This document shows positions 1,740 to 53,862 of a stretch of 64,000 nucleotides of DNA, one piece after another. The first letter of the stretch is position 1. Each line of letters opens with the position of its first letter. This DNA comes from Candidatus Saccharimonadota bacterium (GTDB lineage Bacteria; Patescibacteriota; Saccharimonadia; Saccharimonadales; UBA10212). The stretch spans positions 195,777 through 259,776 of the forward strand of contig JALHRM010000001.1 in assembly GCA_022841445.1 (NCBI GenBank), given 5' to 3'. The position numbers and the translations under genes are program-made. Below the pieces are notes generated by a model. It saw only the letters and a program-made list of their open reading frames with translations, was not told the DNA's origin and did not search any database.

Positions 1740-2183
1740 ATGAGTCTCCTTGACATATCTGCCCGAAAAACAATATTTTTTGCAGCAATTTTATCTGTTG
1801 TGCTTCTACTTGCAGTGTTCACGTTTGCCTCGCGTCCAGCCGAAGCGCCGCTAGACAACCAGTCGTTTACAGAGAATGTTCCGGAGGAGCCTGCCGCAGA
1901 AACACCTGCAACAGTGCAAGGATTATCAGAAACGCAGCAAACGAAAACACAGCTCGACGAATCTTGCAGCAGAACCACCAGCGAAACATCGGATCAATCC
2001 GGTTCAGCAGTCACCAACGAATCATCTACAACAGTTAATTGTGAATTAGACGAAAATTCAGGCTCCACCAATGTAAATATTACAAACAACGTTAACCAAA
2101 CTGCAGAGTCTGGCAGTAGCACGGGAACGAGCGGGTCAGCAAGTAACTCAAACCGAAGCAATGTTAATATAAATATTCGTTAG
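1740..2183 (+). CDS. Secreted Asn/Ser-rich protein, paralogue of ORF 23-544 (hypothetical)
   Basis: Signal or anchor helix IFFAAILSVVLLLAVFTFASRPAEA. Shares the block C-E-(V/L)-(E/D)-N ... N(I/V)xIxNNxxQ(S/T)AESG ... NV(G/N)(V/I)(D/N)IN with ORF 23-544. Confidence 0.55.
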   Translation: MSLLDISARKTIFFAAILSVVLLLAVFTFASRPAEAPLDNQSFTENVPEEPAAETPATVQGLSETQQTKTQLDESCSRTTSETSDQSGSAVTNESSTTVNCELDENSGSTNVNITNNVNQTAESGSSTGTSGSASNSNRSNVNINIR

Positions 2184-7413: not shown

Positions 7414-8745
7414 ATGTCACTTAACGCCTTACCACCCACACTTCTGATAATTATTGGCATAACAGGAGATTTAGCGCATCGAAAATTACTTCCTGCCTTA
7501 GCTGAAATTGTTCGAACAGGGCATCAACCTGAAATGTTTAAGGTGATTGGCGTTAGTAGGAGTTCTGTCACCCCCGAAGACATCTTCAGTAAAACCAACA
7601 CCGAAGATGTTAGAAATTCCTTGCAGGGAGTGCTTGAAACGTATCAACTTGATTTGGACGATACAGATCAATACAAGAAGTTTGGGGAATACCTTTCAGG
7701 CTACGATGCCAACTTTGGGCAAGACGCCCAAAGATTGTTCTACTTGTCCGTCCCCCCAACTGTTTCCCGGTCTATTATTGAAAATTTAAGCAAATCAGGC
7801 ATCGCGACAGACAAACAAACTAAATTACTACTCGAAAAACCGTTTGGCACGGATGCTGTATCAGCCAGTGAACTCATTAAAACAACGAATCAATTATTTG
7901 ATGAAAGCCAATTGTATCGAATTGATCACTTTTTGGCGAAGGAAATGGCACAAAATATACTAGTATTCCGAAGTGGTAATTCCCTATTCAAGCGTACATG
8001 GAACAAAGACTTTATCGAAAAAATCGAGATCATCGCCAGTCAATCTATTGGTATCGAAGGCAGGGCAGTCTTTTACGAGCAAACTGGTGCGCTGCGAGAC
8101 TTGGTACAGAGCCATTTACTGCAACTCGCTGCGTTGGTACTTATGGACCTACCCGCTAAAGACGAATGGGACCAAGTTGCCAAGCTACGGCTTGATGCCC
8201 TACGAAACCTTAAGTCCGACAATACGGCTGTACGTGGGCAATACGATGGCTATAAGCAAGAGGTTGGCAATCTAAAAAGCAATGTCGAGACCTATGCTTC
8301 GCTGACTTTGTTTTCTGACGATGACGACTGGCTTGGTGTGCCGATAACACTCACAACTGGCAAAGCGCTCGAAAAGACATTTACTGAAATTTGCATCCAC
8401 TATAACCAGGAAGAATCCAGCGAATCCAATCGTCTTGTGCTGCGCATCCAACCAAATGAAGGTATAGAGGTCTACCTATGGAGCAAGCGACCAGGTTTTG
8501 AGCATAAACTTGATAAAGTAACGCTAGATTTTACATATGATGAGCATTTTAGTGACTTACCCGACGCATATGAGCGTGTATTAGTTGACGCCATTAAATC
8601 AGACCACAGCCTCTTTGCCAGCAGTGACGAAGTCATCGCTTCGTGGCGGATTCTAACACCCATACAAGAAGCCTGGAGTAAAAATAGCGATGATCTAATT
8701 ATCTATAAACCTGGCTCCAAAGCTGAAGAGTTGAGACCGAACTAG
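7414..8745 (+). CDS. zwf: Glucose-6-phosphate 1-dehydrogenase
   Basis: GITGDLAHRKLLPAL (NADP site) and YRIDHFLAKE (RIDHYLGKE active-site signature). Confidence 0.9.
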   Translation: MSLNALPPTLLIIIGITGDLAHRKLLPALAEIVRTGHQPEMFKVIGVSRSSVTPEDIFSKTNTEDVRNSLQGVLETYQLDLDDTDQYKKFGEYLSGYDANFGQDAQRLFYLSVPPTVSRSIIENLSKSGIATDKQTKLLLEKPFGTDAVSASELIKTTNQLFDESQLYRIDHFLAKEMAQNILVFRSGNSLFKRTWNKDFIEKIEIIASQSIGIEGRAVFYEQTGALRDLVQSHLLQLAALVLMDLPAKDEWDQVAKLRLDALRNLKSDNTAVRGQYDGYKQEVGNLKSNVETYASLTLFSDDDDWLGVPITLTTGKALEKTFTEICIHYNQEESSESNRLVLRIQPNEGIEVYLWSKRPGFEHKLDKVTLDFTYDEHFSDLPDAYERVLVDAIKSDHSLFASSDEVIASWRILTPIQEAWSKNSDDLIIYKPGSKAEELRPN

Positions 8746-13709: not shown

Positions 13710-16700
13710 ATGCTACACGAACATCACAAAAAACATAAAACTCGCTCGCATGGCGTACGAAAGGCTGATATGGATCGTACCGTACCAACATACCTTAAAA
13801 ATAAGTTTGTTCTACTGCTAATTGGAGTTATCGTCCTGACAGCCGGAATTCTCGGTTTTACCTATTGGAATGCGGCTAACAATGTGCAGCCTGCAGCGAA
13901 TAGAACAGAGGCAGATGTGTACAACCAAGATCGGGGGACTACTTCTGTTGCCGATTGGACCGCATCGGCCAATTATGATGTTGGTGCTTTTGGAATTATG
14001 ACTAAGGCTAGTAATCAGTTAGTTATAGGGTATAAAGCAGGTCCCAAATACGCCACGGGACAAGAAGCTTGCTGGAATCTGGTTATTCCAAGACCAGCAA
14101 ACGCTACTCAGTATCGCGTCAACTATGTAGATTTTGACTACCTTACTAACGAAGCTGGGGCTAATGGTGTCAAAGTAAAGGTTAATGGGCAGTCACAGAA
14201 TGTAACTATCATAGGGGGTCCTGGGGGTCATCAAGGCGGTGCACAGTTTAATCGTGTAATAAGAGTTGCCACGCCAGGCCTAGTGAACGGTGGCACCGTA
14301 TCAATTTGTAACTATGTTCTTGGTAACAACCAAGGTAATGGTACACACTTGTTTACTGATCAGAAGACTATCTACGTCAGCAAGTACAATATCTTCGGCG
14401 AGAAAGATATTCCTGATGCGCCGGCCGCACCAACAACAGTTAAGGTAACCGGCCAGGTACGAGACTGGAATAATAAGAACCTTGCGAATGTTACTATCGA
14501 CACATGTATTGCTGGTGTTAGCCCGAAGACCAACTCTCAGGGCATATATGAATTCAGCGTACCTCACAGTACTAGCTTTTGTTTGAGAGTAAACACAGGC
14601 GGGGGCGGTATACCAGCTGGCACTACTGGTGTAAAAGCTAACGCCGGGCAAGCCGCCGGATCAATCGCCGCAGCTGGGCAAGGTAGTTACGAATACCAAG
14701 TAGCCGGAGTAGCATGCCGAAACGGTGGCTGCGCGCCAGTACAAGGAACCAACGACCGTGATGTAGATACCGGTTATACTTTTAGTCTTCTAGGCACAAG
14801 TCCAACCGCTCCAGCACCTTCCACTCCAACAACGCTCAAGTGTGCTGGTGGATCAGGTCAAAAAGTCACCGTCATTAATGCCGAAGCGGGAGTCTGCGGT
14901 AATGGTACCGTGCCGTTTACTAGTCCGGCTGACCAAGTAGGAAGCGGTACATCAGTTATTCTGCCAAATACGAATAGCACAGTAGAATATACCTTCTCAG
15001 CTCCGGCTGATGGTAAGTACGTTGCAGCAGCAACGATGAGCAATGACAACCGCTACAAATCTACTGCAGCCAAGTACCGACTTAGCATTGCCACAGCCGG
15101 TGGTGCTCAAAGCAGCTCTAGCGAAGCTCTTACCCGTAAGGGTACATCAGCAACTGCAGCCAGCTATAGCGATTACGGCCTAGATGCTGCTAAGGCAGTA
15201 AATGCCACCAATGGTCAAAGTTTACTAGTGCGTGTTACTTTTTTGGAAGCTCAGAACAGCACCACGAATGGCGACCAGAACTTATACGTTGATCAATTAA
15301 AACTAGTGAAGGTTGGAGAGTTACCAGCTACACCGGGAGCCGGGAGCGGCGGATCAAGCGGCAATACCGGAAATGCTAACGGCACTTGTACAACTCCACA
15401 CACCGCAGTAGCACCTGCTGGTGCAACCCGCATTGAAGCTGAATCTGTTGGTAGCGGCAACCGTTCCGCCAGCGCTGTAGCAGGGCCTATCCATGTCATT
15501 GCCAATACTGCCGCGCTGAACGGAGCTACCGGTTGTCAGGCTGTTCGCCTGGTAACTGATGCCGGATTCGTAAAGTACCAATTTAGTCCAGCAGCCGGCA
15601 GCTATTCGTTAGTTGTCCGTGGTAAAGGTTCTATGAAGATGACATCAGTAAACAGATCGGGCGTCACCCTAAATCGCAATTTTGGAACGGCCTTTACCGA
15701 CCAGAATGTTAGCAGCATTGTAGAATCGGCAACCGCAGAAACAATAAGCGTTAGTGCTAATGAAAAAGTTCAAATAGAAATAAAGCGTAATGGTGGTGAT
15801 GCCTATGTCGACTTTATTGAGTTGAGGAAAGTGGCCGATCCTCCAGCAACCAACAATGGTGGCAATACCGGAAATGCCGGAGGAAGTGCCTTTAGTCCTT
15901 GTACCAACACCGGAAGCGGCCGAACCGATCTTGTACAAGCCGAGCAAGCCTTGTGTGTGAGTGGCGGTGGAGTAGTAGCCGATACCAACGCCGATGGCGA
16001 TAAAGCAGTTGTGTTAAGTCCATCAGGGGCTGCAGTCGAATACAAACTGCGGGCATCTACCACCGGCAGATACAATGCTGTGGCAAAGATGCGCAGTCAG
16101 CTAAACAACAACGGTAAAGTAACATTCGAGGTAATAAGTGAATCCGGTGCAGTGTTAGCTCGACAAACCGGCAAGGCAATAACTCAGAATGCTACGACTT
16201 ATACAAGATATACGGTAAGCAACAATGACAAAGTGGTAGACTTCAATCTTACCGACAACCAGCCTGTTACGATCCGCATCAAATCAGAAAGCTCTCAGCT
16301 GGTCCGAGTAGACAGCTTCAGTCTGAGTCGTGAAGGCAACACAACCCCTAGCGCTGGCAGTGGAACTAGTGGGACAGCCAGCAACACGGTTGCTTGCGCC
16401 AAAGGCGCTTCGCAGCAAGTCTTCACCGTTGAGGCAGAAAACGCTACTTGCGATAACCCTCCAAAAGCGGCAGTATTTAGCGGTCCCGCAAATCAGGTAG
16501 ATGGCGCCTTTGGTGGGCAGGCGGTCATCTTAGCGGCTAATAATTCTTCAGTTGAATACACCTTTATTGCTCCTGAGGATAATGATTATATTGCAGGGGC
16601 AAGGGTCAGTAACGACAATCGTTTTGTTGGCACCGAACGAGCAAAATTTGTATTGTCTATAGATTCAGGTGGTGCGCTCCGGCAGTCACCAGAGCAAACT

Positions 16701-18977
16701 GCCGACGGAGCGGCAGCTGGTTCGAAAGCCTCAAATTACAAGGATCGCCGAGCTACAAACCAAGTAATGCCAGGAATAAAAAAAGGTGCTGCAGTTAGAG
16801 TTAAAATAGTCTTCACCAATAACAACGGCGAGAGCGCAGAAGGCAAAGACCGCAACTTGTTCGTTGACAGATTAATGCTCATACCGACTAAGGGAGCTGC
16901 TGCAAATAATCCGCCTACTAGCGGGAGCACAGCGCCCGTTGCTTGCAGCGGTGCTGGTAGTGGCCGTAGTGACTATGTAGAGGGTGAGCAAGCCCAGTGC
17001 TCAAGCGGCGTTATTGTAAGCGATGATGCGAAAGCCGCTGGTCAAAAGGCCGCGCTACTACGTGCCCAGAATAATAGCCTTACATACACCTTCAAAGTAA
17101 CGGAGCCTGGCTTGTACAGATCTGCCGCCAGCATGAGAAGTCAGCCAGGAACTACCGGAAAAGTCGAAATGCAGTTTTCTAAACTAACTCCTGGTCAGAG
17201 CCCTAGTATCAAAACTCAAGCCAATAAAGCCGTGGGCGGCAGTGCGAGTTATTCGAGATACACAGTAAGATCAGGCGACGGGCTAGCAACAGACCCTCCA
17301 CATGAGTTCAGTGCAAACGCTGGTGATGAACTAACTATCTCGGTGAAAAGCTCAACTAATGTTGATGTGCTTGTTGACTACTTGTACTTGAGCAAAGCGC
17401 CAGTATCGGTTGTGAATTGCAGCAATGATGCTCCAAACGCCGCTGTTGTAGAAGCCGAAAGAAGTCTATGCACCGGCCGCGTCGGGGTGGTGAGTTCGGC
17501 AAACGCGTTTAATACTGGAGCATTTGGCGACAAGTCAGTATTTCTGTTCACAGATAATTCGTCCGTTCAATATACCTTTACGGTAAGCGAACCCGGCAAA
17601 TACGCTGCCGTTGCTCGCGCCAGTAACGACAATCGTTTTGTTGCAGGTGCAGGTGAAACTGCTAAATTTGACCTAAGAATTGGCAAGGTAGGCGGAATCG
17701 CCAAAGCTGCCAGCTTCACCACGAAAGCACGTGCTACCAGTACACCCACATGGGATAAATTCACTCTCGGCGAAGCTAACAGACTTTGCTTACAAGCAGG
17801 TGACAAAGTGACAGTGAGAGCATCATTCACTAATGACAACAGCGGCTCGACAGAAACAAGCGACCGCAACCTAATTGTCGACCAGTTAGAACTACTCAAA
17901 ACTGGTGCTGCTACAAACTGCAATACACCACCTACCACTGGCGGATCAAGCACTGATACGCCTCCAGCTAATAACCCTAACGGTCCAGAAGCAACATCGG
18001 CTCGCTACGTGCGCGCCGAAAACGCCAATGCCGGCTGCGGTCGCTTAACACAGCAAACAACTAGTAGTGAAATACTAAGTCCGTTTGACTGTAGGAGTCG
18101 GTTGCAAAGCGACAATCAGGCAGAAAATAAAAAAGCTTTGTCAGTAACCGCAAATAAGAGTTTTGTCACACACGAGTTTAACCAAGTAAAGATTGACGGC
18201 GTGTATGCAGTAGGCTTTATGCTCAAAGCAGAAAAGCCGGTTTGGCCTGGTGCAAAAGCACCAAAAGCCACGCTGTATATTAACAACAGTAAGGTTAATA
18301 CTTTCGATGTAGCCACCGACAAATACCGGTTCTATAACACGAGAATTGAAGTTCAGACCAACGACAAACCCAAAGTACGAATCGTAATGGAAGATCAAAA
18401 CAGTGTGCTGAACACTGAAAAGTTGTGGATTGATTCTATAAGACTAATTCGCACAGCAAATGTACCACCAGAAGAGCCAGTTGTTGTTACGCCCGCTAAT
18501 CAAACCGGAGGAATACCAGCACCACAATACACGCCTTGCAGTTCTAACTGTGGTGAAAATACCCCCGAAATCTCCGCAGACCGACAGCAACAAGTTTGCG
18601 CCCCAGGACAAAAGCGTGTTACCCCGAGAGTTCCCGCCTTTCCGGGTCAGTACATCTGTGTTACCCCAATCCAAGTACAACCTCCTACATACGTAAATCC
18701 ACATAGCATAACCTACGGAAGTTGTCCAAGTGGGTACTTGATAGATTTGAGTAATTCTAGTAAGTGTTATAGATACTTTTGCTTCACTGGTACTTTGTCT
18801 GCTGACGGCCGACGCTGTGTGGGCATAGGTCTTGTGAGCTCAACTACTGATGCCATCAGAGATACGAAAGACCGCGCAGTGCAATCCGTCAATTGTCCTT
18901 CCGGATACTCAGCAGAAGGACTACGCTGTAAAAGCAAGTCAAGCCAGATATTCAATACTCCAGGTCTTTCAGGTTAA
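13710..18977 (+). CDS. Giant (1755 aa) membrane-anchored surface protein with seven tandem CBM6/35-like modules and a Cys-rich C-terminus
   Basis: N-terminal TM anchor (FVLLLIGVIVLTAGILGF). Two module types in the order A-B-B-A-B-A-B, starting at about 14835, 15380, 15895, 16389, 16939, 17411 and 17989. Type A carries VEAE...SVEYTF...SNDNR...DRNL(F/I)VD(Q/R)L. Type B carries (I/V)(E/Q)AE...YxxxV...(V/I)D. A likelier start is ATG 13770, which is preceded by AAAGG. Confidence 0.85.
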   Translation: MLHEHHKKHKTRSHGVRKADMDRTVPTYLKNKFVLLLIGVIVLTAGILGFTYWNAANNVQPAANRTEADVYNQDRGTTSVADWTASANYDVGAFGIMTKASNQLVIGYKAGPKYATGQEACWNLVIPRPANATQYRVNYVDFDYLTNEAGANGVKVKVNGQSQNVTIIGGPGGHQGGAQFNRVIRVATPGLVNGGTVSICNYVLGNNQGNGTHLFTDQKTIYVSKYNIFGEKDIPDAPAAPTTVKVTGQVRDWNNKNLANVTIDTCIAGVSPKTNSQGIYEFSVPHSTSFCLRVNTGGGGIPAGTTGVKANAGQAAGSIAAAGQGSYEYQVAGVACRNGGCAPVQGTNDRDVDTGYTFSLLGTSPTAPAPSTPTTLKCAGGSGQKVTVINAEAGVCGNGTVPFTSPADQVGSGTSVILPNTNSTVEYTFSAPADGKYVAAATMSNDNRYKSTAAKYRLSIATAGGAQSSSSEALTRKGTSATAASYSDYGLDAAKAVNATNGQSLLVRVTFLEAQNSTTNGDQNLYVDQLKLVKVGELPATPGAGSGGSSGNTGNANGTCTTPHTAVAPAGATRIEAESVGSGNRSASAVAGPIHVIANTAALNGATGCQAVRLVTDAGFVKYQFSPAAGSYSLVVRGKGSMKMTSVNRSGVTLNRNFGTAFTDQNVSSIVESATAETISVSANEKVQIEIKRNGGDAYVDFIELRKVADPPATNNGGNTGNAGGSAFSPCTNTGSGRTDLVQAEQALCVSGGGVVADTNADGDKAVVLSPSGAAVEYKLRASTTGRYNAVAKMRSQLNNNGKVTFEVISESGAVLARQTGKAITQNATTYTRYTVSNNDKVVDFNLTDNQPVTIRIKSESSQLVRVDSFSLSREGNTTPSAGSGTSGTASNTVACAKGASQQVFTVEAENATCDNPPKAAVFSGPANQVDGAFGGQAVILAANNSSVEYTFIAPEDNDYIAGARVSNDNRFVGTERAKFVLSIDSGGALRQSPEQTADGAAAGSKASNYKDRRATNQVMPGIKKGAAVRVKIVFTNNNGESAEGKDRNLFVDRLMLIPTKGAAANNPPTSGSTAPVACSGAGSGRSDYVEGEQAQCSSGVIVSDDAKAAGQKAALLRAQNNSLTYTFKVTEPGLYRSAASMRSQPGTTGKVEMQFSKLTPGQSPSIKTQANKAVGGSASYSRYTVRSGDGLATDPPHEFSANAGDELTISVKSSTNVDVLVDYLYLSKAPVSVVNCSNDAPNAAVVEAERSLCTGRVGVVSSANAFNTGAFGDKSVFLFTDNSSVQYTFTVSEPGKYAAVARASNDNRFVAGAGETAKFDLRIGKVGGIAKAASFTTKARATSTPTWDKFTLGEANRLCLQAGDKVTVRASFTNDNSGSTETSDRNLIVDQLELLKTGAATNCNTPPTTGGSSTDTPPANNPNGPEATSARYVRAENANAGCGRLTQQTTSSEILSPFDCRSRLQSDNQAENKKALSVTANKSFVTHEFNQVKIDGVYAVGFMLKAEKPVWPGAKAPKATLYINNSKVNTFDVATDKYRFYNTRIEVQTNDKPKVRIVMEDQNSVLNTEKLWIDSIRLIRTANVPPEEPVVVTPANQTGGIPAPQYTPCSSNCGENTPEISADRQQQVCAPGQKRVTPRVPAFPGQYICVTPIQVQPPTYVNPHSITYGSCPSGYLIDLSNSSKCYRYFCFTGTLSADGRRCVGIGLVSSTTDAIRDTKDRAVQSVNCPSGYSAEGLRCKSKSSQIFNTPGLSG

Positions 18978-19058: not shown

Positions 19059-21401
19059 CTACCACCACTCTAATGTACTGCCGGTACGAACAGTGATGGC
19101 CGAGCCGTTTAATTCTGATGCAAATCTCAGCTGTACTGTACCGTTTGCTGTCGGCAAAATACTGCCTTCAATAACTGCAATATTTCCAGTAGTTGCCGCC
19201 GAAGTTGCACTACAACCCGCTGGCGAATCATTGCCATTGCCTGTTCGACTTGTACCTGTGGTAGTTGTAAGTGAGGAGCTTTGCATATATGTGAAATATG
19301 TGTTTGTGGGGCCGGTTGCAGCCCAAGCAGACCCTGTTGTGGTAGCTGCAGCAGTATAGTTGATAACTGCGTAGAAACGATACACAACACCTGTAGTAAC
19401 AGCAAAACTTAAACCTGTAAGATGCGTAAACGTGCATGCTCCGGCACTATCTATGACGTCAGCAGCCAGTATCGTCCTGTTACGTGTAATACAGTCTTTC
19501 CATGCACCAGCCTCAAAACATCTAAACTTTCCCAAGTTACTATTGTAATACTGCCCACCATCAACACCCGTAGGGTCGCCAGCAGAGGTCTTAGTATCAA
19601 GCACAAGCAGCGTACCTATAGTGTCAGAAGTCCCTAGCACAATATTGCTGGTTCCACCTGGTGTTAGGTTAATCGCTCCCGAAGTTGTAGTCTGTATGTT
19701 CACGTTGCCGCTTGTTGCGTTTATGGTCGCATTGCCACTTCCGGCATTAAGAGTTAGCGAACTGGTTGTGTTGGTCGATCCAATCGTAACCGACTGCGCA
19801 GCAGCACCTGTTGCAAATTGAATAGTATGAGCGGTGGCGCCATTGAATAACGCCGCAACACCCGTGCCGTTTTCAATTGTTAAACTTGTACTTGTTGTAC
19901 CGATAGTTATGCCACCTGACGGACTAATCGCAAATACGTCTGTGCCGCCATTCTGAACGGCAAAGCGGCCATTACCGCCACAGGCAGTTGTACATTGAAG
20001 ATCAATAAGTACATTGGCGTCTGTAGCCGTGTCGGTCGCGTTGATCACAAGATCATGAGTATCTGTAGTATTTAGTGTTGGATTATTATTATAGGCTGAT
20101 TGTAGTGTAGCTCCGCTCACGGCAGATGTTGTCGAGTTATATTCAACCGTCCAATAAACGGTAAAATCATTCGTCGTGGGTGCCATACCCACCGTATCAA
20201 AAGCAATACCAATTGTATCGCCAGCTGAAAATGTTACCACCCCGGGGTCAAGCGCTGTTGCGGATTCACGCTGTACCGTACTACTCATACTACACGCCCC
20301 TGCCCCCACAGACACACCATTCACCCGCCATCGTAGATTAAGTGTTCCCGCAGTAACGTTAGCGGTGTTTTTGATTAGACAGGTCCTAAAACTCCCTCCA
20401 GCAGGTGCCGTAAAGCCTGTTATTCCGGCTGTATTTGACACCGCAGTTGCAGTTGTAAATATGAGCGTCTCTACTACCGCTCCAGTCACATTAGCCCCCA
20501 CATTAGCCAGTCCAGATGTAAAGCTAGCCGTAGAATTGCCACTTGTCAGACAATCTGACCATGCGCCGCTCTGGAAACAACGAAACGTTCCGGAATTGCT
20601 ATTGTAATACATACCGCCGTTAACGCCCGTAGGGTCACCGGCGGTATTCTTTGTGTCTACCACTAACTGAGCGGCTGAAGCATCAGCCGTCGGATTGCCA
20701 ATATACACATTCGCTGCACTGGTATCTACTGTCAATAAGGGATTTGATGACTGACTTTGAATCTGAAATCCTATCGATGAATCAGCCTGATTACGGAACA
20801 AAGCACTGCCGTTATTTGCCAGTTGGAATATAGCCGTTCCGCTACGCTGTACATCGAAAATTAATGCCGTACCACCGGTCTTGTTTATAGACAGGCTGGC
20901 ATTTGTTGTAGAGCCATCCGTTTGAGTCCCCTGTCCTAGCTGTACCAAGTTAGTACTATCAAGACCGTCAATAGTGTCAGAATTGAAGGCATACGGACTA
21001 GCAGTAAGCTGTATTCGGGGGGACATTTCGGGATCCGCTCCCACCTTCATACTCAAGTAAAGCGCCGACAGGTTAAAGTTAACACTGCCAGGTAAGCTAG
21101 TCACGCTACCAAGCGCTACCCGAAAAATACCATCATTGACCGCAACTGTTGCTTGAGTTTCTTCCCATAAGCAAGAGTTAGCACAAGGGCTAGCGGTATC
21201 TGCAGTTGGATCTGTGTATACCCTGAATCGTATAGAGTAACTGCCATTGGTAACGTTCGTGCCATCCGGATTTGTCAGTTTACCCTGGAAATTTATGGTC
21301 GGATTAATGGCAGCTTGAGTTTTTGGGGTAAATTGAAACCATAGCCCGCCAAGGATAGCGAACAAAGTTAGCGGCAAAACCCACATCCACTTCTTAGGCA
21401 T
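19059..21401 (-). CDS. 780-aa secreted fibre-like protein with internal two-fold module duplication
   Basis: Signal peptide. N-terminal head INFQGKLTNPDGTNVTNGSYSIRFRVY...LWEE...YLSMKVG...EMSPRIQLTASPYA. Two copies of DTK(N/T)(T/S)AGDPTGVxGGxYYNSNxGxFRCFxxGAWxDC(L/I)T at 20544-20663 and about 19486-19611, each followed by a beta-sandwich-like domain. Confidence 0.8.
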   Translation of the reverse strand: MPKKWMWVLPLTLFAILGGLWFQFTPKTQAAINPTINFQGKLTNPDGTNVTNGSYSIRFRVYTDPTADTASPCANSCLWEETQATVAVNDGIFRVALGSVTSLPGSVNFNLSALYLSMKVGADPEMSPRIQLTASPYAFNSDTIDGLDSTNLVQLGQGTQTDGSTTNASLSINKTGGTALIFDVQRSGTAIFQLANNGSALFRNQADSSIGFQIQSQSSNPLLTVDTSAANVYIGNPTADASAAQLVVDTKNTAGDPTGVNGGMYYNSNSGTFRCFQSGAWSDCLTSGNSTASFTSGLANVGANVTGAVVETLIFTTATAVSNTAGITGFTAPAGGSFRTCLIKNTANVTAGTLNLRWRVNGVSVGAGACSMSSTVQRESATALDPGVVTFSAGDTIGIAFDTVGMAPTTNDFTVYWTVEYNSTTSAVSGATLQSAYNNNPTLNTTDTHDLVINATDTATDANVLIDLQCTTACGGNGRFAVQNGGTDVFAISPSGGITIGTTSTSLTIENGTGVAALFNGATAHTIQFATGAAAQSVTIGSTNTTSSLTLNAGSGNATINATSGNVNIQTTTSGAINLTPGGTSNIVLGTSDTIGTLLVLDTKTSAGDPTGVDGGQYYNSNLGKFRCFEAGAWKDCITRNRTILAADVIDSAGACTFTHLTGLSFAVTTGVVYRFYAVINYTAAATTTGSAWAATGPTNTYFTYMQSSSLTTTTGTSRTGNGNDSPAGCSATSAATTGNIAVIEGSILPTANGTVQLRFASELNGSAITVRTGSTLEWW

Positions 21402-21444: not shown

Positions 21445-22575
21445 TTATCTGTTTCTACGAGCTCTTGCTCGGCTGTAGCTCACTACTTCTATTCCCGATT
21501 TTGTGACGACATGGTCATTATTAGCACTAGCGCCTGTGCTATTTTTAGATTCACTTAACTTCGACTCTTTAACTGCCTGCTGTTTCTTCTTGGGCTTAAT
21601 TTTATTTTTTCGGGATACTGCTGCTTTTTTACGGCTATGCCTACGCCGTCTTAAAGGCGTACTAATAAACTGATACATTCTGTTAAGCCAGCCTTTGCCA
21701 TGCGCAAATCCAACCAATACAAGCAGTACAAATGCTACCGCCAACGTCCAGGGTGGAATGTACAAAAACCTTACTGAGCTCACATTAAAGCGGCCTGTAT
21801 CGTCAAATCTATACGACACGTCGACGTTGTAATAACCCGGTACTATAGGCAGTTTTATACGGTCAAACGACGACCTAAGCACTATTTCGCGCCCCGGGAA
21901 AAGCGGAGATGATGGCTCATTAACAATACCTCTCGAATATAGAGAGCTACCACTTGATAAATCAACCGTACCACGAGGCACAATGTGAACGTTTCCGGTA
22001 TTTTTAAAGCTTAGGTCAGCGAACTTTGGAGCCGTAAAGATATTTCTTTGCAATTTAACGTCCGTTAGCTCAATCGAACGCACCGCGCCGCCTTCTTTGA
22101 CAACAAAAAGCGTGACACTTATAGCCTGCTGGAGAGTAAGATTAGTAGCTTCTGCGGGCAGCAACTTAATCAGTAGCGCGCCGTAGTGCCCACCAGGACC
22201 AAGTTCAGCAACATTGCTAAATTGTACCTGAACATTTACTGACTGTCCTGGGTTAAGAGTGGTGTCTGTGGTCAGTATTTTCGTAGCAGCAACGAGTCCC
22301 GGATCAACATTGCTGCTTGGAACCAAATTTTTACCAACCTGCTCGAGGCCGCTGATTGACGCGCCCACTCGTACCGCCACCGGAAAATCATTGCGAACCG
22401 ATACCGACTTAGTTTGAGTGGGTGTACTGTCTGTGATATCTGCTTCCAATAGGGCTGGAGATACAGTTATTCCCCCTGCCGCATAAGCCGGACGCACAAA
22501 TCCAAGCATAATGAATGCACAAAGCAGGCTGGCAACAATAATGAGTTTTGGATCATAAATAACCCTTGCGTTCAT
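21445..22575 (-). CDS. Signal peptide + two Ig-like halves + C-terminal TM + Lys/Arg tail; DUF916/DUF3324-like (CscA-like) membrane protein, copy 2
   Basis: Cleavable leader ending PAYAAGG. C-terminal helix PWTLAVAFVLLVLVGFA, then a basic tail. Same architecture and size as the neighbouring ORF 22581-23693. Family assignment is by architecture and pattern only. Confidence 0.5.
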   Translation of the reverse strand: MNARVIYDPKLIIVASLLCAFIMLGFVRPAYAAGGITVSPALLEADITDSTPTQTKSVSVRNDFPVAVRVGASISGLEQVGKNLVPSSNVDPGLVAATKILTTDTTLNPGQSVNVQVQFSNVAELGPGGHYGALLIKLLPAEATNLTLQQAISVTLFVVKEGGAVRSIELTDVKLQRNIFTAPKFADLSFKNTGNVHIVPRGTVDLSSGSSLYSRGIVNEPSSPLFPGREIVLRSSFDRIKLPIVPGYYNVDVSYRFDDTGRFNVSSVRFLYIPPWTLAVAFVLLVLVGFAHGKGWLNRMYQFISTPLRRRRHSRKKAAVSRKNKIKPKKKQQAVKESKLSESKNSTGASANNDHVVTKSGIEVVSYSRARARRNR

Positions 22576-22580
22576 CCGTA

Positions 22581-23693
22581 TTATGCGCGCTCGCCGCGGT
22601 CACGAGACGATGACTTTGCGGAGTTTTTCTTCCCTGAACCGAATAGCTGCCTGCCTGCACTAAAGAAACCAAATCCAACGACTAGTAAGATCAAAAATAC
22701 GATAAGCAACAGTTTCCAGGGAATAACCCAAAAACTAACTTCTGTAGTTATGGGAACATCCCGGGTGCCATCGTTATACACTGCCACCATTTTTGCGGTG
22801 TACTTGCCAAAGCGGAATTTGCTGGCATCAGACCAGTTCCATTCTAGTTTTCGCTCTGGTTCCACATTAGCCGGACCAGAAATTGTGCGGAACACCGGAA
22901 ACCCTTCTGCCCAATTAGAGTTGAGTTCGCGCGTTACTCCGGGCAGCAGGTAAGAGCGCTTGTCGTTGAGCGGGATGGTAGAAATCGGCGTTGCGTCATC
23001 ACTGTTTCTTTGGATAAAGATGTTCCCAAGCGGCTGGATGATTGTATTGCCGGTGTTTTTTACCTTAAAACTTAACTCGGCTGGCAGATACTCGTACACT
23101 CTGTGCTTGGACGAAAATTCCAACACTTCAAATTGCCGTTTTGCGCCCGGCTTGTCAACTGAAAGTAGGGTAAATACAGCGACAGAGCCTTCGATAGCAC
23201 GTTGCCCAGGCTTAGGTTTTGGTGGATTTGCCCTGTTGATAACTATTGCAAAACTATAGCTAAAGCCAGCATCTTCAGGTGGACTGACAGTGATTTTTTG
23301 GGTGTACCATTCACCTGGTTTGATGTTAAATAGAGGGTTTTGAATTTCGACCCAGTCTATGACTTCCTTAGGGGCTGATGTGCCAAGTGACACTTCGCCG
23401 TCACCATTATTAACACTGAATGTGCGCAACTGAGCCCTTAAGTTTTCGGCCTTGCTTCCCTGGTTGTTGATGCGCAGTTCAATCGTTTTTGTTTTGCCAG
23501 GCTGCAACGTTTCGACAATCGGCGAAGGCGTTACCTGCAGTGAAAAGTCGCGGTCTTGATCCTGTGCAGACACTTTAGAAATGATAATTGGAGATACAAC
23601 GCCGAGCAGCAGCGCAAACGCGGTCAGAAGCAGTGCAGAATTTTTACCCCATTTCATAAGAATTATAAGTAGTATAGCAAAAGACTGCCTCAT
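22581..23693 (-). CDS. DUF916/DUF3324-like (CscA-like) membrane protein, copy 1
   Basis: DFSLQVTPSPIVETLQPGKTKTIELRINNQG resembles the DUF916 N-terminal strand pattern. The second half KVKNTGNTIIQPLGNIFI...GKYTAKMVAVY resembles DUF3324. C-terminal TM WKLLLIVFLILLVVGFGFF. The start may be ATG 23657 (MKWGKNSALLL...). Confidence 0.55.
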   Translation of the reverse strand: MRQSFAILLIILMKWGKNSALLLTAFALLLGVVSPIIISKVSAQDQDRDFSLQVTPSPIVETLQPGKTKTIELRINNQGSKAENLRAQLRTFSVNNGDGEVSLGTSAPKEVIDWVEIQNPLFNIKPGEWYTQKITVSPPEDAGFSYSFAIVINRANPPKPKPGQRAIEGSVAVFTLLSVDKPGAKRQFEVLEFSSKHRVYEYLPAELSFKVKNTGNTIIQPLGNIFIQRNSDDATPISTIPLNDKRSYLLPGVTRELNSNWAEGFPVFRTISGPANVEPERKLEWNWSDASKFRFGKYTAKMVAVYNDGTRDVPITTEVSFWVIPWKLLLIVFLILLVVGFGFFSAGRQLFGSGKKNSAKSSSRDRGERA

Positions 23694-23760: not shown

Positions 23761-24798
23761 CTAGAACAAGCCAGCACCGGTAACGGTAATCGTGTCGGTG
23801 TAATCTGTAGCTGCTGGTGTTGTTGCAGCGATTGTGGCATTGTTTGTCAGTGTTAGTACAGCGTTGTCAGCGGTACCGTTCGATGATGCAAGAGTACGGA
23901 GTGATGTGTCCAAACCACCACCTTGTCCTGCTCCACCAACAAAGGCTGCAGCAACAGTAATAGTACCGCTACCGCCGGTTTGGCTTTGAGTGACACCGGT
24001 GTTGTAGCCTTCAGTACCAGTACTGAGCGTGCTGTTACTACCTGGTGTTGTCGAGGCAATAGTCTTTGATGCGGCGGCAGAAGTAAGACCAGCGTTGCTG
24101 TCACGTGCCCATGCATACCAACCATTGGTAGCATTCGTGTTAATTGTAACTGTTCGTGGAGTAGGACTGCTCACAACCGAGCTAGTGCTTAGCGTGCCAA
24201 GAGCGTCTGTGTTACCACTTAGAGCAAAGCTAAATGTTGGCGTAACAGTAGCTGTTACGACGATCTGGTCATCGCTAATGCTTGCTGTAGCGTAAGTACC
24301 GCTATCGATTGTAGCTGGACCGTTATCCCGGGTTGTGACAGTTCCAGTGTTGTTAGCTGTGGCTGCTGCCTTAATAGACAGCGCTGCAGAGTTTGTCCAG
24401 TTGAAACAGTATAATGTTCCGACTGTTAGGTCTGTGCTTGGGAACGTTACCGTCTGACCACTCGCTGCTGAAGCCGTACCTATACCAGGCCAGGCACTGG
24501 CGCCTGATGGCCAAGCCAAGTTAGTAGTACTTACTGTCCAGTTACCCGTTGTAGTGCTGACAGTGTAGCTTGTCGGAAACACAACTTGGACGTCGTTTTC
24601 CGTAGCAACCGTTGCAGCTTGCGCACAGACGGTGCCAGTACTTGCAGTACTTGTTTTGACTCGGTCAAAACGTACCAACGTTCTAGACAACGTGGCAGCT
24701 TCTGCGCGACTGTTAATCGCCAGAGGCAACGCTGCAACCAGAACCAATAGAAAAGCCAGGCCAATAGCCCGCCAATCAACGAACCGTAAGGTTTGCAT
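23761..24798 (-). CDS. Secreted beta-rich Thr/Ser/Ala-rich protein with WxL-/pilin-like C-terminal module; candidate major structural subunit
   Basis: Signal peptide with AEA-A cleavage site. C-terminal module VTPTFSFALSGNTDALGTL...NGWYAWARDSNAGLTS...DYTDTITVTGAGLF is paralogous to the C-terminus of ORF 24907-25965. Confidence 0.5.
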   Translation of the reverse strand: MQTLRFVDWRAIGLAFLLVLVAALPLAINSRAEAATLSRTLVRFDRVKTSTASTGTVCAQAATVATENDVQVVFPTSYTVSTTTGNWTVSTTNLAWPSGASAWPGIGTASAASGQTVTFPSTDLTVGTLYCFNWTNSAALSIKAAATANNTGTVTTRDNGPATIDSGTYATASISDDQIVVTATVTPTFSFALSGNTDALGTLSTSSVVSSPTPRTVTINTNATNGWYAWARDSNAGLTSAAASKTIASTTPGSNSTLSTGTEGYNTGVTQSQTGGSGTITVAAAFVGGAGQGGGLDTSLRTLASSNGTADNAVLTLTNNATIAATTPAATDYTDTITVTGAGLF

Positions 24799-24906: not shown

Positions 24907-25965
24907 TTAGAAATCCATGGCGGCAATAAATGTTAGCGTGTCTGAATAGTCATTGGCGCTTGGCACGGTGCTCTCTGTTTTAGCCTTTAATCGCAGTGTA
25001 GAACTCGCGTTTGAAATAGGACCAGAAGTAGTGGTAAACGGACTTGGTGAGTTAGATAGTATCCCCACATTATCCACAGCTCCGTTAAACGGAGCTACAG
25101 CTGCAAGGGGGCCACCGCTTGTTTGAGAGACGCTAATCACCTGAGCGCCGTAACCACTTAAAGCCGATGCCAAGTTGGCAGTTGCAGATGTAATAGTATA
25201 GCTTGCCAGCAGGCTCGTAAGGCCGTTGTTTTGCCCTTGCACATAAATTGATCCTCCGTTCAACGCGTTACTGCTCAGACCAAGCAACGCGTCTTCGTCG
25301 GCAGCCTGTACGACTCCTGGTGCAAGCCCACTAAACCCTATATTAAATGGCGGAATAGAGGTCGCCGACGTTGCAACCGAAAAAGTAATGCTTGTTTGCA
25401 CGGTTGCTGCCGATGCGGTTGGACTAAAACCTGATTCGCTAAATTTGCCTTGGATTGCCTTAACTTTGACGGTATATGTGGTTGCTGGTTCCAACCCCAG
25501 AATCAGGAAGCCACTTGCTCCACCCCAGGCTGCGTACGTTTGATAGTTAGCAATGCTAAGATTTGTGCCAATAGCGTTATCGGTCTGCACGTAACTAGTA
25601 GTCGATACAAATGCATCCGGGCTAATAGCAATAAGATACCGCGTATCCGACGGATTACCAGACGTATTAAGCGTGAGCCGTAGACGATTATAATTATTGG
25701 CAGGATTAACGAGTGTTGGAGCCTGAGGCACATTAGTATTTTGAGTTGCCTGCAGACCGCCTACAACCGTGTTATTTGTAGAATTAATAGTATCTCCACC
25801 ACCTTGCGAACCGGCCAGGCCATTCACTTGATAGTTTGTACTACTGCTTGTACCGCCACCATTGCCAAAGTCATACGATTTTAAGGTGTAGTTTGTGCTG
25901 GTAGGTGCAGAAGCAAGCAGCCCAGCCGAAAGCAGAGAAACAATACTCCCCAAGATGAGATCCAT
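24907..25965 (-). CDS. Secreted protein: SxNY-repeat N-terminus + fibronectin-III-like domain + WxL-/pilin-like C-terminal module
   Basis: STNYTLKSYDFGNGGG...STNYQVNGLAG. FN3-like block APTLVNP...RLRLTLN...GLEPATTYTVKVKA. C-terminal ITFSVATS...GGSIYVQGQNNGLTS...DYSDTLTFIAAMDF. Confidence 0.5.
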   Translation of the reverse strand: MDLILGSIVSLLSAGLLASAPTSTNYTLKSYDFGNGGGTSSSTNYQVNGLAGSQGGGDTINSTNNTVVGGLQATQNTNVPQAPTLVNPANNYNRLRLTLNTSGNPSDTRYLIAISPDAFVSTTSYVQTDNAIGTNLSIANYQTYAAWGGASGFLILGLEPATTYTVKVKAIQGKFSESGFSPTASAATVQTSITFSVATSATSIPPFNIGFSGLAPGVVQAADEDALLGLSSNALNGGSIYVQGQNNGLTSLLASYTITSATANLASALSGYGAQVISVSQTSGGPLAAVAPFNGAVDNVGILSNSPSPFTTTSGPISNASSTLRLKAKTESTVPSANDYSDTLTFIAAMDF

Positions 25966-26017: not shown

Positions 26018-26581
26018 CTACTCACTACGCCATTGCCAGTTTCCGACCAGCTCATCCATGGCTACCTCGACCATACTACCTCTATCGATTGTGGCCGACC
26101 CGACTACCGATATGTGCTTGCCGCCTTCTGCCCAAAACACAGATTTTTCATATCCGCCACTGGTTTTTTTGAACGATATAGCACCTTGCCTGAGCGCAGG
26201 GTCAGAATTTTGCTGGTACATTTCAGGATTACGTTTGCGCACTTGAACTGATGATGATTCTTCAATGCCCTCGATTGATTCGGAAATAGTGATTGCTATT
26301 TGGTCGGTTAGCCTTGGCTCGGTATGGCGAATAACCATTTGTAGTAATTGTGGGCTCTGAGCGGTTTCGTCGAGTCTGCTTACTTCGTACTGACCCTTGA
26401 AAGCTGATACAAAATACTTGGTTTTTATATCGACTTTTGCAGTTTCGACCTGCTTATTTTGCGCAGATTTGGTTGCCACTCTAGTAACTGCCGGCTGTTT
26501 ACTCCACTGATAGAATACATATGCTCCCCCGCCGAGTACTGCAATTATAAGCAAGCTGAACGTCAGTTTTACTGCCTTCAC
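26018..26581 (-). CDS. Single-pass membrane-anchored protein (hypothetical)
   Basis: N-terminal helix LTFSLLIIAVLGGGAYVFY followed by a soluble domain of about 150 aa. Tightly packed in the locus, with a 6-nt gap to the upstream gene. Confidence 0.5.
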   Translation of the reverse strand: MKAVKLTFSLLIIAVLGGGAYVFYQWSKQPAVTRVATKSAQNKQVETAKVDIKTKYFVSAFKGQYEVSRLDETAQSPQLLQMVIRHTEPRLTDQIAITISESIEGIEESSSVQVRKRNPEMYQQNSDPALRQGAISFKKTSGGYEKSVFWAEGGKHISVVGSATIDRGSMVEVAMDELVGNWQWRSE

Positions 26582-26587
26582 AAATAC

Positions 26588-27577
26588 CTACTGACCCTTA
26601 TGGTTTTTTGGTAATACTGCACCGACCAAACGCCGGCTTTGATAAAATTCCCCACCCCAAAATCCGAGAGCAGCAAACACGGCAGCCCCATACAGCGTCC
26701 ACATTGTAAGCGGCACTGAGCCAGCGCCGGGCAAATCAACGCTGCCAATAGTAAGCGGCACCCCGCCGTCAACATATGTAATCGCTACCAGGTTCATGCG
26801 CGCCGACTGATTGCTGGTATCCGTGAGCGTCAACCCAGCTTCGTACCCAGCCAGAATACTGCCCACGTATATATGAAGTAACTTCTTTTTGCCTGGCTGA
26901 TCGTAGACCAGATTGCTTGTCTCGCCATCACCCCATTCAACCTTTAGCTGATACGGAGGCCGGCCGCCTTCGATATATATGGTAAGTTCCGATGGTTTAT
27001 TTGGTTTAAAGACAAAAAACGTCTTATCGGCTAACAACCTTAGGGCAGGGTAGTTTACTCCTGATGAATTGTTGTTACCCGGTGCCCCGTCGTTTGTATC
27101 GCCCGGCGACAATGTCTTGGGTGGCTGATACATAATGTTCAGTGTCGGTCCGTCCGGACCGCTATCATCCGTAATATTGATGATTTTTGGAGTAATGGCA
27201 TTATTACCGCGGTTAATGAAGATACTGATCGAGAAAGTGCCATTCGCCTGGCAGATTGATGAACCCAGCATCGTTCCGCCCCTCCATAACGACACGATAG
27301 ATTGCGGCTCGGTAACCGGACAGGTGCCAGAAACTGCTATGCTTCTTGTTTCAAACACCTGATTGTTCTGTGGATTTGTGATAACCGCCGGGCTCGAAGG
27401 AATCTCGGCCGAAATTTTGGCGGTTACTTTATATTCGTCAGCGGCAACTTTCTGGATAAACAACAAACTTAGACCAACAACCAGCAAAACAACTACAAGT
27501 CCACGATAAGACGTATGGTGGTGCGGCAAGGGTTTGGCAGTGTGTTTATGATGCTGCAGCTTAAGAAGGGTTCGCAT
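26588..27577 (-). CDS. Bitopic protein with His-rich leader, N-terminal TM, Ig-like and PKD-like domains, C-terminal TM (hypothetical)
   Basis: MRTLLKLQHHKHTAKPLPHHHTSYRGLVVVLLVVGLSLL. Ig-like block ITNPQNNQVF...VSGTC. PKD-like block YQLKVEWGDGETS. C-terminal helix MWTLYGAAVFAALGFWGG. ATG 27577 is preferred over 27637. Confidence 0.5.
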   Translation of the reverse strand: MRTLLKLQHHKHTAKPLPHHHTSYRGLVVVLLVVGLSLLFIQKVAADEYKVTAKISAEIPSSPAVITNPQNNQVFETRSIAVSGTCPVTEPQSIVSLWRGGTMLGSSICQANGTFSISIFINRGNNAITPKIINITDDSGPDGPTLNIMYQPPKTLSPGDTNDGAPGNNNSSGVNYPALRLLADKTFFVFKPNKPSELTIYIEGGRPPYQLKVEWGDGETSNLVYDQPGKKKLLHIYVGSILAGYEAGLTLTDTSNQSARMNLVAITYVDGGVPLTIGSVDLPGAGSVPLTMWTLYGAAVFAALGFWGGEFYQSRRLVGAVLPKNHKGQ

Positions 27578-27603
27578 GGCAACAATTATAACGTAAGCGG
27601 ACT

Positions 27604-28554
27604 GTGCTACCATCGATACAAATGACTCACCCGACATATGTATGGCAAGTTATCGGCTTTGTCGGACTTGGAACAACAATTTTGCTGTACGCGTTAAACC
27701 CAAGTTTTCCAACGCCGGATAAGCTTCTCGTTATGTTGCTGTTTGGCTTTATGGCGTTTCGGATGGGTAAGCAACTTTTTATAAGGTTAGCGCCGTTTGT
27801 CGGTCTGATGCTGGTGTATGAATTCTTCCGTGGGCTCATACCGGTACTTAACCAGCGAGTCGCCTATGAATGGATGCCGGCGGTAGACATCTGGATGTTT
27901 GGAGGACTGCCGACTGCCATTCTTCAAGATTGGTGGTGGACGGGAACCGTACAATGGTACGATTCGGCCTTGTACTTGCCGTACCTGCTTCATTTTGTAC
28001 TGCCGCTCGCACTGGCGCTTTTGATATGGAAGCACCGGGAAAAGCTGTACTGGCAATACGTTACCAGTTTTGTAGTATTATGTTTTGCCGCGTTTTTTAC
28101 CTTTCTTTTGATGCCGGCCGCGCCTCCTTGGCTAGCCTCTGAAAAAGGCTACATCGAGCCTATCACCCGTGTTTCGAGCGACGTTTGGGCAAGCTTGGGT
28201 GTACAGGACTTCCCCTCGATCTACAGCAAAATAGCCGCCAACCCGGTTGCTGCCGTACCCAGTCTTCACGCTGGTTTTGCGACGCTGTTTGCCATGTATG
28301 TATTCTTGGTTTTTGGCAGAAAATGGGGGCTGCTCGCAACCGCCTACCCAGTTGTAATCTATGTGGGTACTATATATACAGGCGAACATTATTTTATCGA
28401 TGAGCTACTTGGCAGCATCTACGCAGTAATTGTGTTTTTTGGCATAAAATGGTTCTTTGATAAAGGATACGCCTCAGCCGCAAAAGCAAAAATTAGTAGG
28501 CAATTCCCTGCAAAACACAAAACAAAACTGCCTAGCAAGAAAGTTAAATTATAA
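27604..28554 (+). CDS. PAP2-superfamily membrane protein (Aur1/Ipt1-like phosphotransferase/phosphatase type)
   Basis: Multi-TM protein with the late motifs PSLHAGFATL and GEHYFIDELLG. Confidence 0.6.
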   Translation: MLPSIQMTHPTYVWQVIGFVGLGTTILLYALNPSFPTPDKLLVMLLFGFMAFRMGKQLFIRLAPFVGLMLVYEFFRGLIPVLNQRVAYEWMPAVDIWMFGGLPTAILQDWWWTGTVQWYDSALYLPYLLHFVLPLALALLIWKHREKLYWQYVTSFVVLCFAAFFTFLLMPAAPPWLASEKGYIEPITRVSSDVWASLGVQDFPSIYSKIAANPVAAVPSLHAGFATLFAMYVFLVFGRKWGLLATAYPVVIYVGTIYTGEHYFIDELLGSIYAVIVFFGIKWFFDKGYASAAKAKISRQFPAKHKTKLPSKKVKL

Positions 28555-48095: not shown

Positions 48096-48096
48096 T

Positions 48097-53861: not shown

Positions 53862-53862
53862 T

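Follow-up and report, generated by a model that had tools for sequence, protein, structure and literature searches.

The closest described counterparts of the gene considered here are the mosaic adhesive trimer (MAT) fibres of Bdellovibrio bacteriovorus HD100, which carries 21 MAT genes with locus tags running from bd0704 to bd3442 (Caulton et al. 2024, PMC10769870). The tips of these fibres include TNF-like domains with disulphides and bind N-acetylglucosamine (GlcNAc) or lipopolysaccharide (LPS); the MAT N-domain was proposed to bind an unidentified element on the predator's own surface; and the list of MAT-bearing taxa contains no member of the Candidate Phyla Radiation (CPR) (PMC10769870). 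The mechanisms by which the ultrasmall CPR epibionts recognise their hosts and attach to them "remain largely unknown", according to one passage of PMC12206443. The factors implicated so far in CPR host attachment are type IV pili and a few unnamed adhesins. We analysed a stretch of 64,000 nucleotides (the window, to which all coordinates refer) of contig JALHRM010000001.1 from an environmental Saccharibacterium (CPR/Patescibacteria), in which the open reading frame (ORF) 19059..21401 on the minus strand encodes a fibre-like secreted protein of 780 amino acids (aa). We consider it probable that this protein is secreted, anchored non-covalently and used, as a MAT-like fibre, for adhesion to host cells; the fibre would probably be a trimer, with a single receptor-binding tip that can be exchanged and an internal knob that is conserved. 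The description that suits it best is that of a MAT-type chimeric fibre in a CPR variant. Our literature searches turned up no account of fibres of this kind in Saccharibacteria or in other CPR. Three features would be new with respect to the described MATs: the neck module with its disulphide, the fixed operon of seven genes, and the occurrence of the tip class in phage tail fibres as well.

From its N- to its C-terminus the protein was divided into a Sec-type signal peptide, a beta-rich head, stalk 1, neck 1, an internal domain (D1), stalk 2, neck 2 and a C-terminal domain (D2); the boundaries are given in Table 1. The signal peptide has a basic n-region (MPKK), a hydrophobic helix (aa 5-23 in the model) and an A-x-A-like site (TQA) before AINP, and the cleavage region is kept as "A.AAIN" at the start of the family head alignment. 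A lipobox Cys, an LPXTG motif and a C-terminal transmembrane segment were all absent on inspection of the sequence. Stalk 2 is exemplified by the repeats NATINATSG NVNIQTTTSG AINLTPGGTS, and the autocorrelation of its hydrophobic residues peaked at lags of 9, 18, 27 and 36. Structures were predicted as monomers with AlphaFold2. The full-length model had a mean predicted local distance difference test (pLDDT) score of 70.5, with 80-96 in the head, mostly about 50-65 in the stalks (up to 84 in stalk 1), and mostly 81-94 in neck 2 and D2, falling to about 60 at aa 711-740; high confidence in the head and tip together with low confidence in the stalks is the pattern expected for an obligate oligomeric fibre modelled as a monomer. 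The low stalk confidence and the 9-residue periodicity would also suit a homotrimeric, intertwined beta-prism or beta-helix shaft, as in MATs. An earlier note, made from the letters of this DNA alone, had proposed a fibre protein in which each of two copies of a double-Cys motif is preceded by Thr/Gly/Asn-rich sequence and followed by a beta-sandwich-like domain. These features were found: the protein has a signal peptide, stalks before both copies, and predicted jelly-roll domains which in the AlphaFold models are all-beta and about 140 aa long.

The head provided the link to the MAT fibres. Searches with the full protein of Pfam (E<=0.1), PHROGs and PDB sequences gave no match, and when profiles of the head, of neck plus tip and of two operon partners were searched against the PDB, all matches were at chance level. 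The only family model matched by the protein was NCBIfam NF053851, Bdello_MAT_N ("mosaic adhesive trimer family chimeric fiber protein"); the E-value was 9.6e-7 when the full protein was searched and 2.4e-9 when the search was confined to the head. The same model was matched by 22/22 aligned heads (best E 1.4e-11) and by all ten of ten heads taken from other loci (E 1e-5 to 1e-11). By these profile matches the head appears to be a remote homologue of the Bdellovibrio MAT N-domain, not a member by the NCBI criterion. The likeness extends to architecture: as in the non-S74 MAT subgroup (Bd2439, Bd2734), the signal peptide leads directly into a conserved beta-rich N-domain, of about 130 aa here; there is likewise a long Thr/Gly/Asn-rich shaft with variable, exchangeable C-terminal tips, and the MAT trait of a variable tip on a conserved N-terminus and shaft was found in the fibre family; and the organism, like Bdellovibrio, lives by attaching to other bacteria. 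The MAT C-terminal S74 chaperone/protease domain was not found (no Pfam match at E<=0.1), so that the fibre, if a MAT, would belong to the non-S74 subgroup. Unlike the MATs, the fibre has a double-Cys neck which is not the MAT capping-loop motif, contains an internal jelly-roll knob, belongs to a CPR lineage, and is encoded by a gene that ends a conserved seven-gene operon and has no paralogue elsewhere within the 64-kb window, compared with 21 genes in Bdellovibrio.

The earlier note had also suggested that the N-terminal head recurs in many uncharacterised surface or fibre proteins, and this was borne out. A search of 5.8 billion proteins returned at least 481 hits, including a near-identical NCBI protein (P0001; 99% over the shared 772 residues by local BLASTP) and one that was 81% identical (P0002). 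The named hits were all hypothetical proteins of Candidatus Saccharibacteria or Saccharimonadales, and the best genome loci came from the same groups. Among 120 hits, the head (aa 25-160) was covered by about 116, stalk 1 was conserved in 75-100, neck 1 was covered by about 71, aa 290-440 by about 20-24, the neck 2 region by 83-88, and the C-terminal domain by about 26-37; a pattern as uneven as this marks the family as a mosaic. When one genome per species was scanned, 194 head-encoding loci were identified, in Saccharibacteria and in Levy-, Morani-, Andersen- and Paceibacteria. Eighty of the 194 were examined, and locus-level counts given below refer to these; in all 80 the head adjoins the leader, within ORFs of 220-2785 aa (measured stop to stop, the shortest being cut by contig ends). 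Occurrence of the family in true Bdellovibrionales, as the titles of some metagenome-assembled genomes (MAGs) would have it, was considered and rejected: the operon proteins of the MAGs so titled were 60-91% identical to those of MAGs labelled Moraniibacteriota. The heads from MAGs titled "Bdellovibrionales" and "Gammaproteobacteria" scored no better on the Bdellovibrio model, and because of those identities and these scores the titles were not trusted. The MAGs titled "uncultured Bdellovibrionales" that have the same operon are L049, L053, L057, L063, L064, L069, L070, L073, L077 and L078; L043-L062 are operon-bearing and labelled Gammaproteobacteria or Pseudomonadales.

Folds were assessed with Foldseek. 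The PDB matches of the full-length model, weak in absolute terms but alike in kind, were Cbln1/4, adiponectin, Pgp3, PLTL TNF-like lectin, BC2L-C lectin, the MAT tip Bd2439 (8ol4) and phage fibres; the presence of 8ol4 among them accords with the TNF/C1q-like, disulphide-containing tip folds of MATs. Against predicted viral structures the same model gave 120 matches at E<=1e-3 (tail fibres, collagen-repeat and C1q-domain proteins), the best domain-sized match having a TM-score of 0.72 and a root-mean-square deviation of 2.6 A over 148 columns. D1 was compared by means of its own model, covering aa 240-445 (pLDDT 70, predicted TM-score 0.60), and matched Ena3A, ExsF, C1ql1, C1QL2, ACRP30, Cbln1, 4-1BBL, LIGHT and BclA in the PDB with E 2.5e-4 to 4e-3. 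The matches of the D1 and D2 predicted folds to C1q/TNF heads had probabilities of 0.99-1.0. D1 and D2 are predicted to be jelly rolls closest to the trimeric C1q/TNF-type heads, in agreement at the level of predicted fold with the "C1q-like heads" that the earlier note had envisaged. The arrangement likewise resembles that of C1q, adiponectin, cerebellins, BclA and ExsF, where a jelly roll, predicted here at about 140 aa, ends a fibrous stalk; these proteins were the best structural matches. The stalk of the fibre is, however, not collagenous.

Several observations weigh against a MAT-like, trimeric fibre and are collected here. The NF053851 scores were 24-44 bits compared with a curated cut-off of 60, and the match, sub-threshold in this sense, spanned only model positions about 3-88 of 162, or half of the model. 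The Foldseek matches were moderate (TM-scores 0.4-0.6; best PDB E 4e-3 for the full model and 2.5e-4 for D1), and the Pfam models for C1q (PF00386) and TNF (PF00229) were not matched, no Pfam family being found at E<=0.1; given these two results, membership in the C1q/TNF superfamily is tentative. Viral capsid jelly rolls were also present in the D1 match list. The trimer, which we think probable, is argued from analogy, from the low monomer confidence of the stalks and from the C1q/TNF-type fold matches. Finally, a keyword search, the only kind made there, recognised no homologue among the annotated genes of the cultivated model Southlakia epibionticum.

The double-Cys motif, written as DTK..AGDPTGV.GG.YYNSN.G.FRCF..GAW.DC[LI]T, occurred exactly twice in the 780-aa protein, at aa 249-286 (window 20544-20657) and aa 602-639 (window 19485-19598). 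The earlier note had placed the copies at 20544-20663 and about 19486-19611 and counted 40 aa; the motif as written is 38 aa, and the conserved unit defined by the envelope of its hidden Markov model (HMM) is 47 aa. The copies share 28 of 38 residues; nucleotide identity was 71% in the core of 114 nt, 66% when flanks were included (144 nt) and no more than 50% at third codon positions, so that "about two-thirds" identity and an old duplication, as previously suggested, were fair descriptions. The significance of the repeat was assessed with 500 composition-preserving shuffles: the Smith-Waterman score of neck 1 with neck 2 was 182, compared with 22.5 +/- 4.7 for shuffled sequences (z=33.8), and none of the 500 shuffles reached it. 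The repeat was confined to the 47-aa block. The 53 aa preceding each block gave z=0.7, D1 with D2 gave z=0.8, and the two stalks gave z=3.2, a score reached by 6/500 shuffles; self-blastp of the whole protein returned the identity hit only, and the BLAST match of half against half (E 3e-27) was driven by the neck. The claim of a two-fold internal duplication held for the 47-aa neck, and failed for the domains that follow it, for which alignment of the D1 family with the D2 family by hhalign also gave a probability of only 6%.

Two necks are not special to this protein. An iterated neck HMM found the neck in 132 of 137 family proteins (one copy in 114, two in 16 and three in 2), with the last copy at a median of 159 aa from the C-terminus; the neck usually stands directly before the C-terminal tip. 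With giant relatives included, the number of necks per protein ranged from 1 to 9 across the family. Among these giants P0139, P0140, P0141, P0170, P0172 and P0248 (2377-5074 aa) have 7-9 necks arranged as beads on a string, and some of them have no detectable head. A search of 1.84 billion cluster representatives (50% identity) with neck 2 and the tip (aa 590-780) returned 2291 clusters at E<=1e-3, and when aa 240-445 served as the query of a second database search, 16 short fragments were all that came back, most of them matching the neck. No ORF without a head contained a neck in the 80 genome loci. In 302 distinct necks both Cys were present in 298, neither in 4, and a single Cys in none, a tally not corrected for phylogeny; the alignment of neck plus tip also shows joint loss of both Cys. 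Residues kept or lost together are what a disulphide would produce, and we infer that the neck, modelled as three short strands (YYNS / FRCF / AW.D), is closed by one. The motif might have turned out to be a low-information linker, which the earlier note gave as the outcome that would undo its proposal; by its distribution and its paired Cys, the 47-aa neck is an information-rich, family-specific module and not a generic linker.

The sequences C-terminal to each neck were clustered and fell into at least 9 unrelated sequence classes. The D2 class was the largest, with 42 members, all C-terminal; the D1 class had 20 members, all internal, three of which had been scored "C" only for want of a detected later neck. 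Exchange of the tip was most evident in the comparison with P0002, encoded on contig L082, the nearest relative. The query operon and L082 were co-linear, with 77% identity over 6.5 kb by blastn; the co-linear DNA alignment stopped near window 19525, at about aa 625 within neck 2, and identity past that point was 51-59%. Identity of the encoded segments was 79-95% up to and including neck 2 and 48% in D2 (Table 1). The query tip was closer to the tips of proteins less similar in their best overall alignment than P0002, for example 61% identical to that of P0011, than to the tip of P0002, at 46% in the tip comparison; this incongruence argues that the tip was replaced and did not simply diverge fast. 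Among pairs of proteins with heads at least 85% identical, 84 of 107 had tips that were less than 55% identical or unrelated. In other family members the stalk contains an inserted CBM_4_9 domain, the C-terminal domain is SO2946-like, or there is a Gly_rich_2 domain. Tip mosaicism is therefore family-wide, with the breakpoint at the neck in the closest pair.

These data bear upon the suggestion of two stacked receptor-binding units. D2 behaves like a receptor-binding tip, presumably, in that its class is always C-terminal, it is 48% identical between orthologues that are otherwise 79-95% identical, and it has a phage relative at 52% (below). The suggestion did not stand for D1, which looks like a structural or accessory knob, not a second variable binding head, because it is 94% conserved, belongs to an always-internal class, and had no viral relatives in a scan able to detect close ones only. 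The stronger form of the suggestion, that a complete unit of stalk, motif and beta-sandwich was duplicated long ago to give two equivalent stacked receptor-binding units, accounts for the truly duplicated motif, for D1 and D2 being predicted jelly rolls of similar size with C1q/TNF-type matches, for a 15-residue patch that aligns between the D1 and D2 families (GTL.LRW / GTVQLRF), and for the marginal similarity of the stalks. We nevertheless regard it as unlikely: D1 and D2 gave the chance-like z and hhalign values reported above, their classes differ in position (always internal, always terminal) and in conservation (94% and 48%), and the occurrence across the family of 1-9 necks followed by unrelated domains is better fitted by shuffling of modules.

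Relatives of the tip were found in viruses. In a search of representatives, 49 of 137 newly returned proteins (among 150 listed) carried the tip only, without head or neck, and were mostly short, about 200-650 aa. One of them, P0227, was 52% identical to D2 over 141 aa (E 1e-40) and is encoded on a 30.6-kb contig of an uncultivated podovirus-like phage (Ga0105340_1000184), with a P22_portal gene upstream and Phage_stabilise immediately downstream. A scan of IMG/VR with an alignment of the tip alone identified 152 viral contigs encoding full-length tip relatives of 39-54% identity. In the 80 of these 152 loci that were examined, the tip domain ended 2-5 residues from the ORF end in nearly all of 82 ORFs, whose median length was about 290 aa; no head was found, and no credible neck (one match was marginal). 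IMG/VR scans with single sequences of neck plus tip, or of D1, by which close relatives only are detectable, gave no match, and neither did tblastn of neck plus tip against GenBank phages; there is no Pfam or PHROGs model for the tip domain. As judged from these full-length sequence matches, the tip class is common to the cellular fibre and to viral tail-fibre-like proteins: the C-terminal 140-aa domain is homologous over its full length and lies at the extreme C-terminus in both.

The fibre gene could on this account be a phage or phage-derived tail fibre (of a prophage or tailocin) sitting in the chromosome, since its tip is homologous to those of viral tail fibres and the structural matches to phage fibres are many. 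We judge this to be very improbable: the viral proteins of about 290 aa are without the head and neck, neither of which was found in the 80 viral loci; the searches of PHROGs and of GenBank phages were empty; no phage genes lie near the fibre gene, whose neighbours are a GMP synthase gene, the upstream operon and housekeeping genes; and the operon is a cellular one, carried in the chromosome and kept in synteny across CPR phyla. The high conservation of shaft and operon, together with a variable exposed end, could also represent a structural envelope or S-layer-like spacer fibre that has no specific ligand and varies its tip to escape phages or predators, the same pattern being known to arise under antigenic or receptor escape. 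The exchanged tips are, however, discrete folded lectin-like modules common to phage receptor-binding proteins, which points to gain of a binding function and not to simple escape, and we attach hardly any probability to such a spacer. The MAT-like host-adhesion fibre remains the reading that we favour.

Table 1. Segments of the fibre protein, genes upstream of it in the operon, and the viral tip ORF; identities are those of each segment with P0002.
Feature	Window coordinates	Strand	Identity to P0002 (%)	Remarks
Signal peptide, Sec-type, aa 1-30	21312..21401	(-)		MPKKWMWVLPLTLFAILGGLWFQFTPKTQA, then AINP; read from sequence
N-terminal head, aa 31-160, MAT-N-like, beta-rich	20922..21311	(-)	95	pLDDT 80-96; presumed cell-proximal anchor
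Stalk 1, aa 161-242, Thr/Gly/Asn/Ser-rich, short beta strands	20676..20921	(-)	95	monomer pLDDT 52-84
Neck 1, aa 243-289, double-Cys beta-meander (C274, C284)	20535..20675	(-)	92	HMM envelope; three short strands in model
D1, aa 290-435, internal jelly-roll knob (predicted)	20097..20534	(-)	94	two further invariant Cys, C341 and C370
Stalk 2, aa 436-595	19617..20096	(-)	81	runs of about 9-residue repeats; monomer pLDDT about 38-64
Neck 2, aa 596-642 (C627, C637)	19476..19616	(-)	79	HMM envelope
D2, aa 643-780, C-terminal tip, C1q/TNF-like jelly roll (predicted)	19062..19475	(-)	48	presumed receptor-binding domain; pLDDT 82-94 outside aa 711-740
376-aa partner	21445..22575	(-)		signal peptide, beta-rich ectodomain, C-terminal transmembrane segment and basic tail; homologue in 74/80 loci
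370-aa partner	22581..23693	(-)		same architecture as 376-aa partner, C-terminal transmembrane segment; 70/80 loci
345-aa partner	23761..24798	(-)		secreted; most conserved of the cluster, up to 75% identity; 62/80 loci
352-aa partner	24907..25965	(-)		secreted; fn3 E 0.003, below threshold; 61/80 loci
187-aa and 349-aa genes	26018..27637	(-)		membrane-associated; in a subset of Saccharibacteria loci
Viral tip ORF (coordinates of locus L083, outside the window)	L083 8001-9050			viral relatives L084-L163

The fibre gene is the last of seven closely spaced genes on the minus strand, running from 27637 down to 19059. Homologues of the four nearest upstream genes keep this order in most of the 80 loci, which represent several CPR phyla, and in 74/80 a homologue of the 376-aa partner sits immediately upstream of the fibre gene. 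The gene order recurs in the P0002 contig and in CP064993.1, a complete genome in which no gene of the set has a Pfam match and in which the 187-aa and 349-aa genes agree in size as well. With blastp at E<=1e-6 these two genes were detected in 17-20 loci; relaxing the threshold to E<=1e-4 added, for the 187-aa gene, matches of 21-25% identity in a few Moraniibacteriota-like loci. None of the six upstream genes gave a match above threshold in searches of Pfam, NCBIfam and PDB sequences, and the 345-aa partner gave no match there at all. The 370-aa partner had weak WxLIP_PGBD, CARDB and fn3_5 matches, and in the families of the two nearest partners sub-threshold matches to WxLIP_PGBD (PF06030) and fn3_5 recurred, WxLIP in 5/10 members with a best E of 6e-4. 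The two nearest partners look like membrane-anchored Ig-like proteins. Since the fibre has no lipobox, LPXTG or transmembrane anchor, the partners are the obvious candidates for the surface element bound by the head, and their gene linkage suggests that the head may dock on them.

The composition of this operon raises the possibility that the fibre and its partners capture environmental polysaccharide or fasten the cell to surfaces, and are not concerned with host recognition. The operon resembles the WxL/Csc clusters of Firmicutes (DUF916 = WxLIP_PGBD) in having two upstream proteins with a signal peptide, Ig-like domains, and a C-terminal transmembrane segment with basic tail, and a carbohydrate-binding role would suit the weak recurring WxLIP_PGBD matches of these two proteins, the CBM_4_9 domain within the stalk of some family members, and the neighbouring gene convergent with the fibre gene, whose product has CBM60 and CBM6 matches. 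All of the PF06030 matches were below threshold, however, and no WxL domain or LPXTG protein was detected, so that the likeness to WxL/Csc clusters is one of resemblance only. Strain-level tip swaps and a tip shared with phages are typical of recognition of variable cell-surface receptors, and the CPR are regarded, from their cultivated members, as obligate episymbionts in a passage of PMC12206443. We give little credence to polysaccharide capture or surface fastening as the role of the locus, and return to host adhesion.

The MAT-like fibre would operate as follows. The signal peptide would be cleaved and the protein exported; the beta-rich head would stay cell-proximal and probably dock onto the products of the six upstream genes, two of them predicted to be membrane-anchored and Ig-like; and the fibre would trimerise like the MATs and the C1q/TNF-headed fibres. 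Two Thr/Gly/Asn-rich stalks would project outward, each ending in a 47-aa disulphide-locked neck followed by a jelly roll. D1 would form a conserved internal knob along the shaft, and D2 the distal tip, binding a surface structure, most likely a glycan, of the bacterium to which the epibiont attaches. The neck may serve both as the structural transition from stalk to head and as a stretch of homology for recombinational exchange of tips, by which strains would come to carry different tips on one shaft. Trimer formation, surface anchoring via the partners, and host-cell binding are the steps of this scheme that we infer. A more ambitious proposal, which we put forward tentatively and consider rather doubtful, is that the operon constitutes a previously undescribed CPR-wide host-attachment apparatus, that the MAT-like fibre is mounted in it on the two membrane-anchored Ig-like proteins, that its tips come from a pool shared with phages and are exchanged at the disulphide-locked neck, and that the tip sets which host can be attached to, as a cellular counterpart of host-range switching by phages.

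Other features of the window may be recorded. The gene convergent with the fibre gene (13710-18977, plus strand) encodes a 1755-aa secreted protein with repeated CBM60 (E 5e-13), weak CBM6, and a Cys-rich C-terminus; contig L082 has a syntenic gene of 1798 aa. Two adjacent large ORFs on the minus strand, 41430-44129 (899 aa) and 44198-46951 (917 aa), had no Pfam match at E<=0.001. The G+C content was 0.38-0.41 at 48001-56000 and 0.43-0.50 in the rest of the window; this may represent an acquired region. A fused trehalose-6-phosphate synthase/phosphatase (Glyco_transf_20 + Trehalose_PPase) is encoded at 2180-4366 on the minus strand and a glucose-6-phosphate dehydrogenase at 7414-8745 on the plus strand, both of which are notable for a reduced CPR genome.

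The locus provides a concrete candidate for the attachment of CPR epibionts, one open to testing from sequence, since its shaft and operon are conserved and many CPR genomes can be searched for them; two modules without a Pfam model, the double-Cys neck and the tip domain, are now defined. If the proposed function is true, metagenomes could yield predictions of host range from the class of tip, and exchange of tips could be carried out by experiment. The concept of the MAT fibre would then be extended from diderm predators to the monoderm-like parasites of the CPR.

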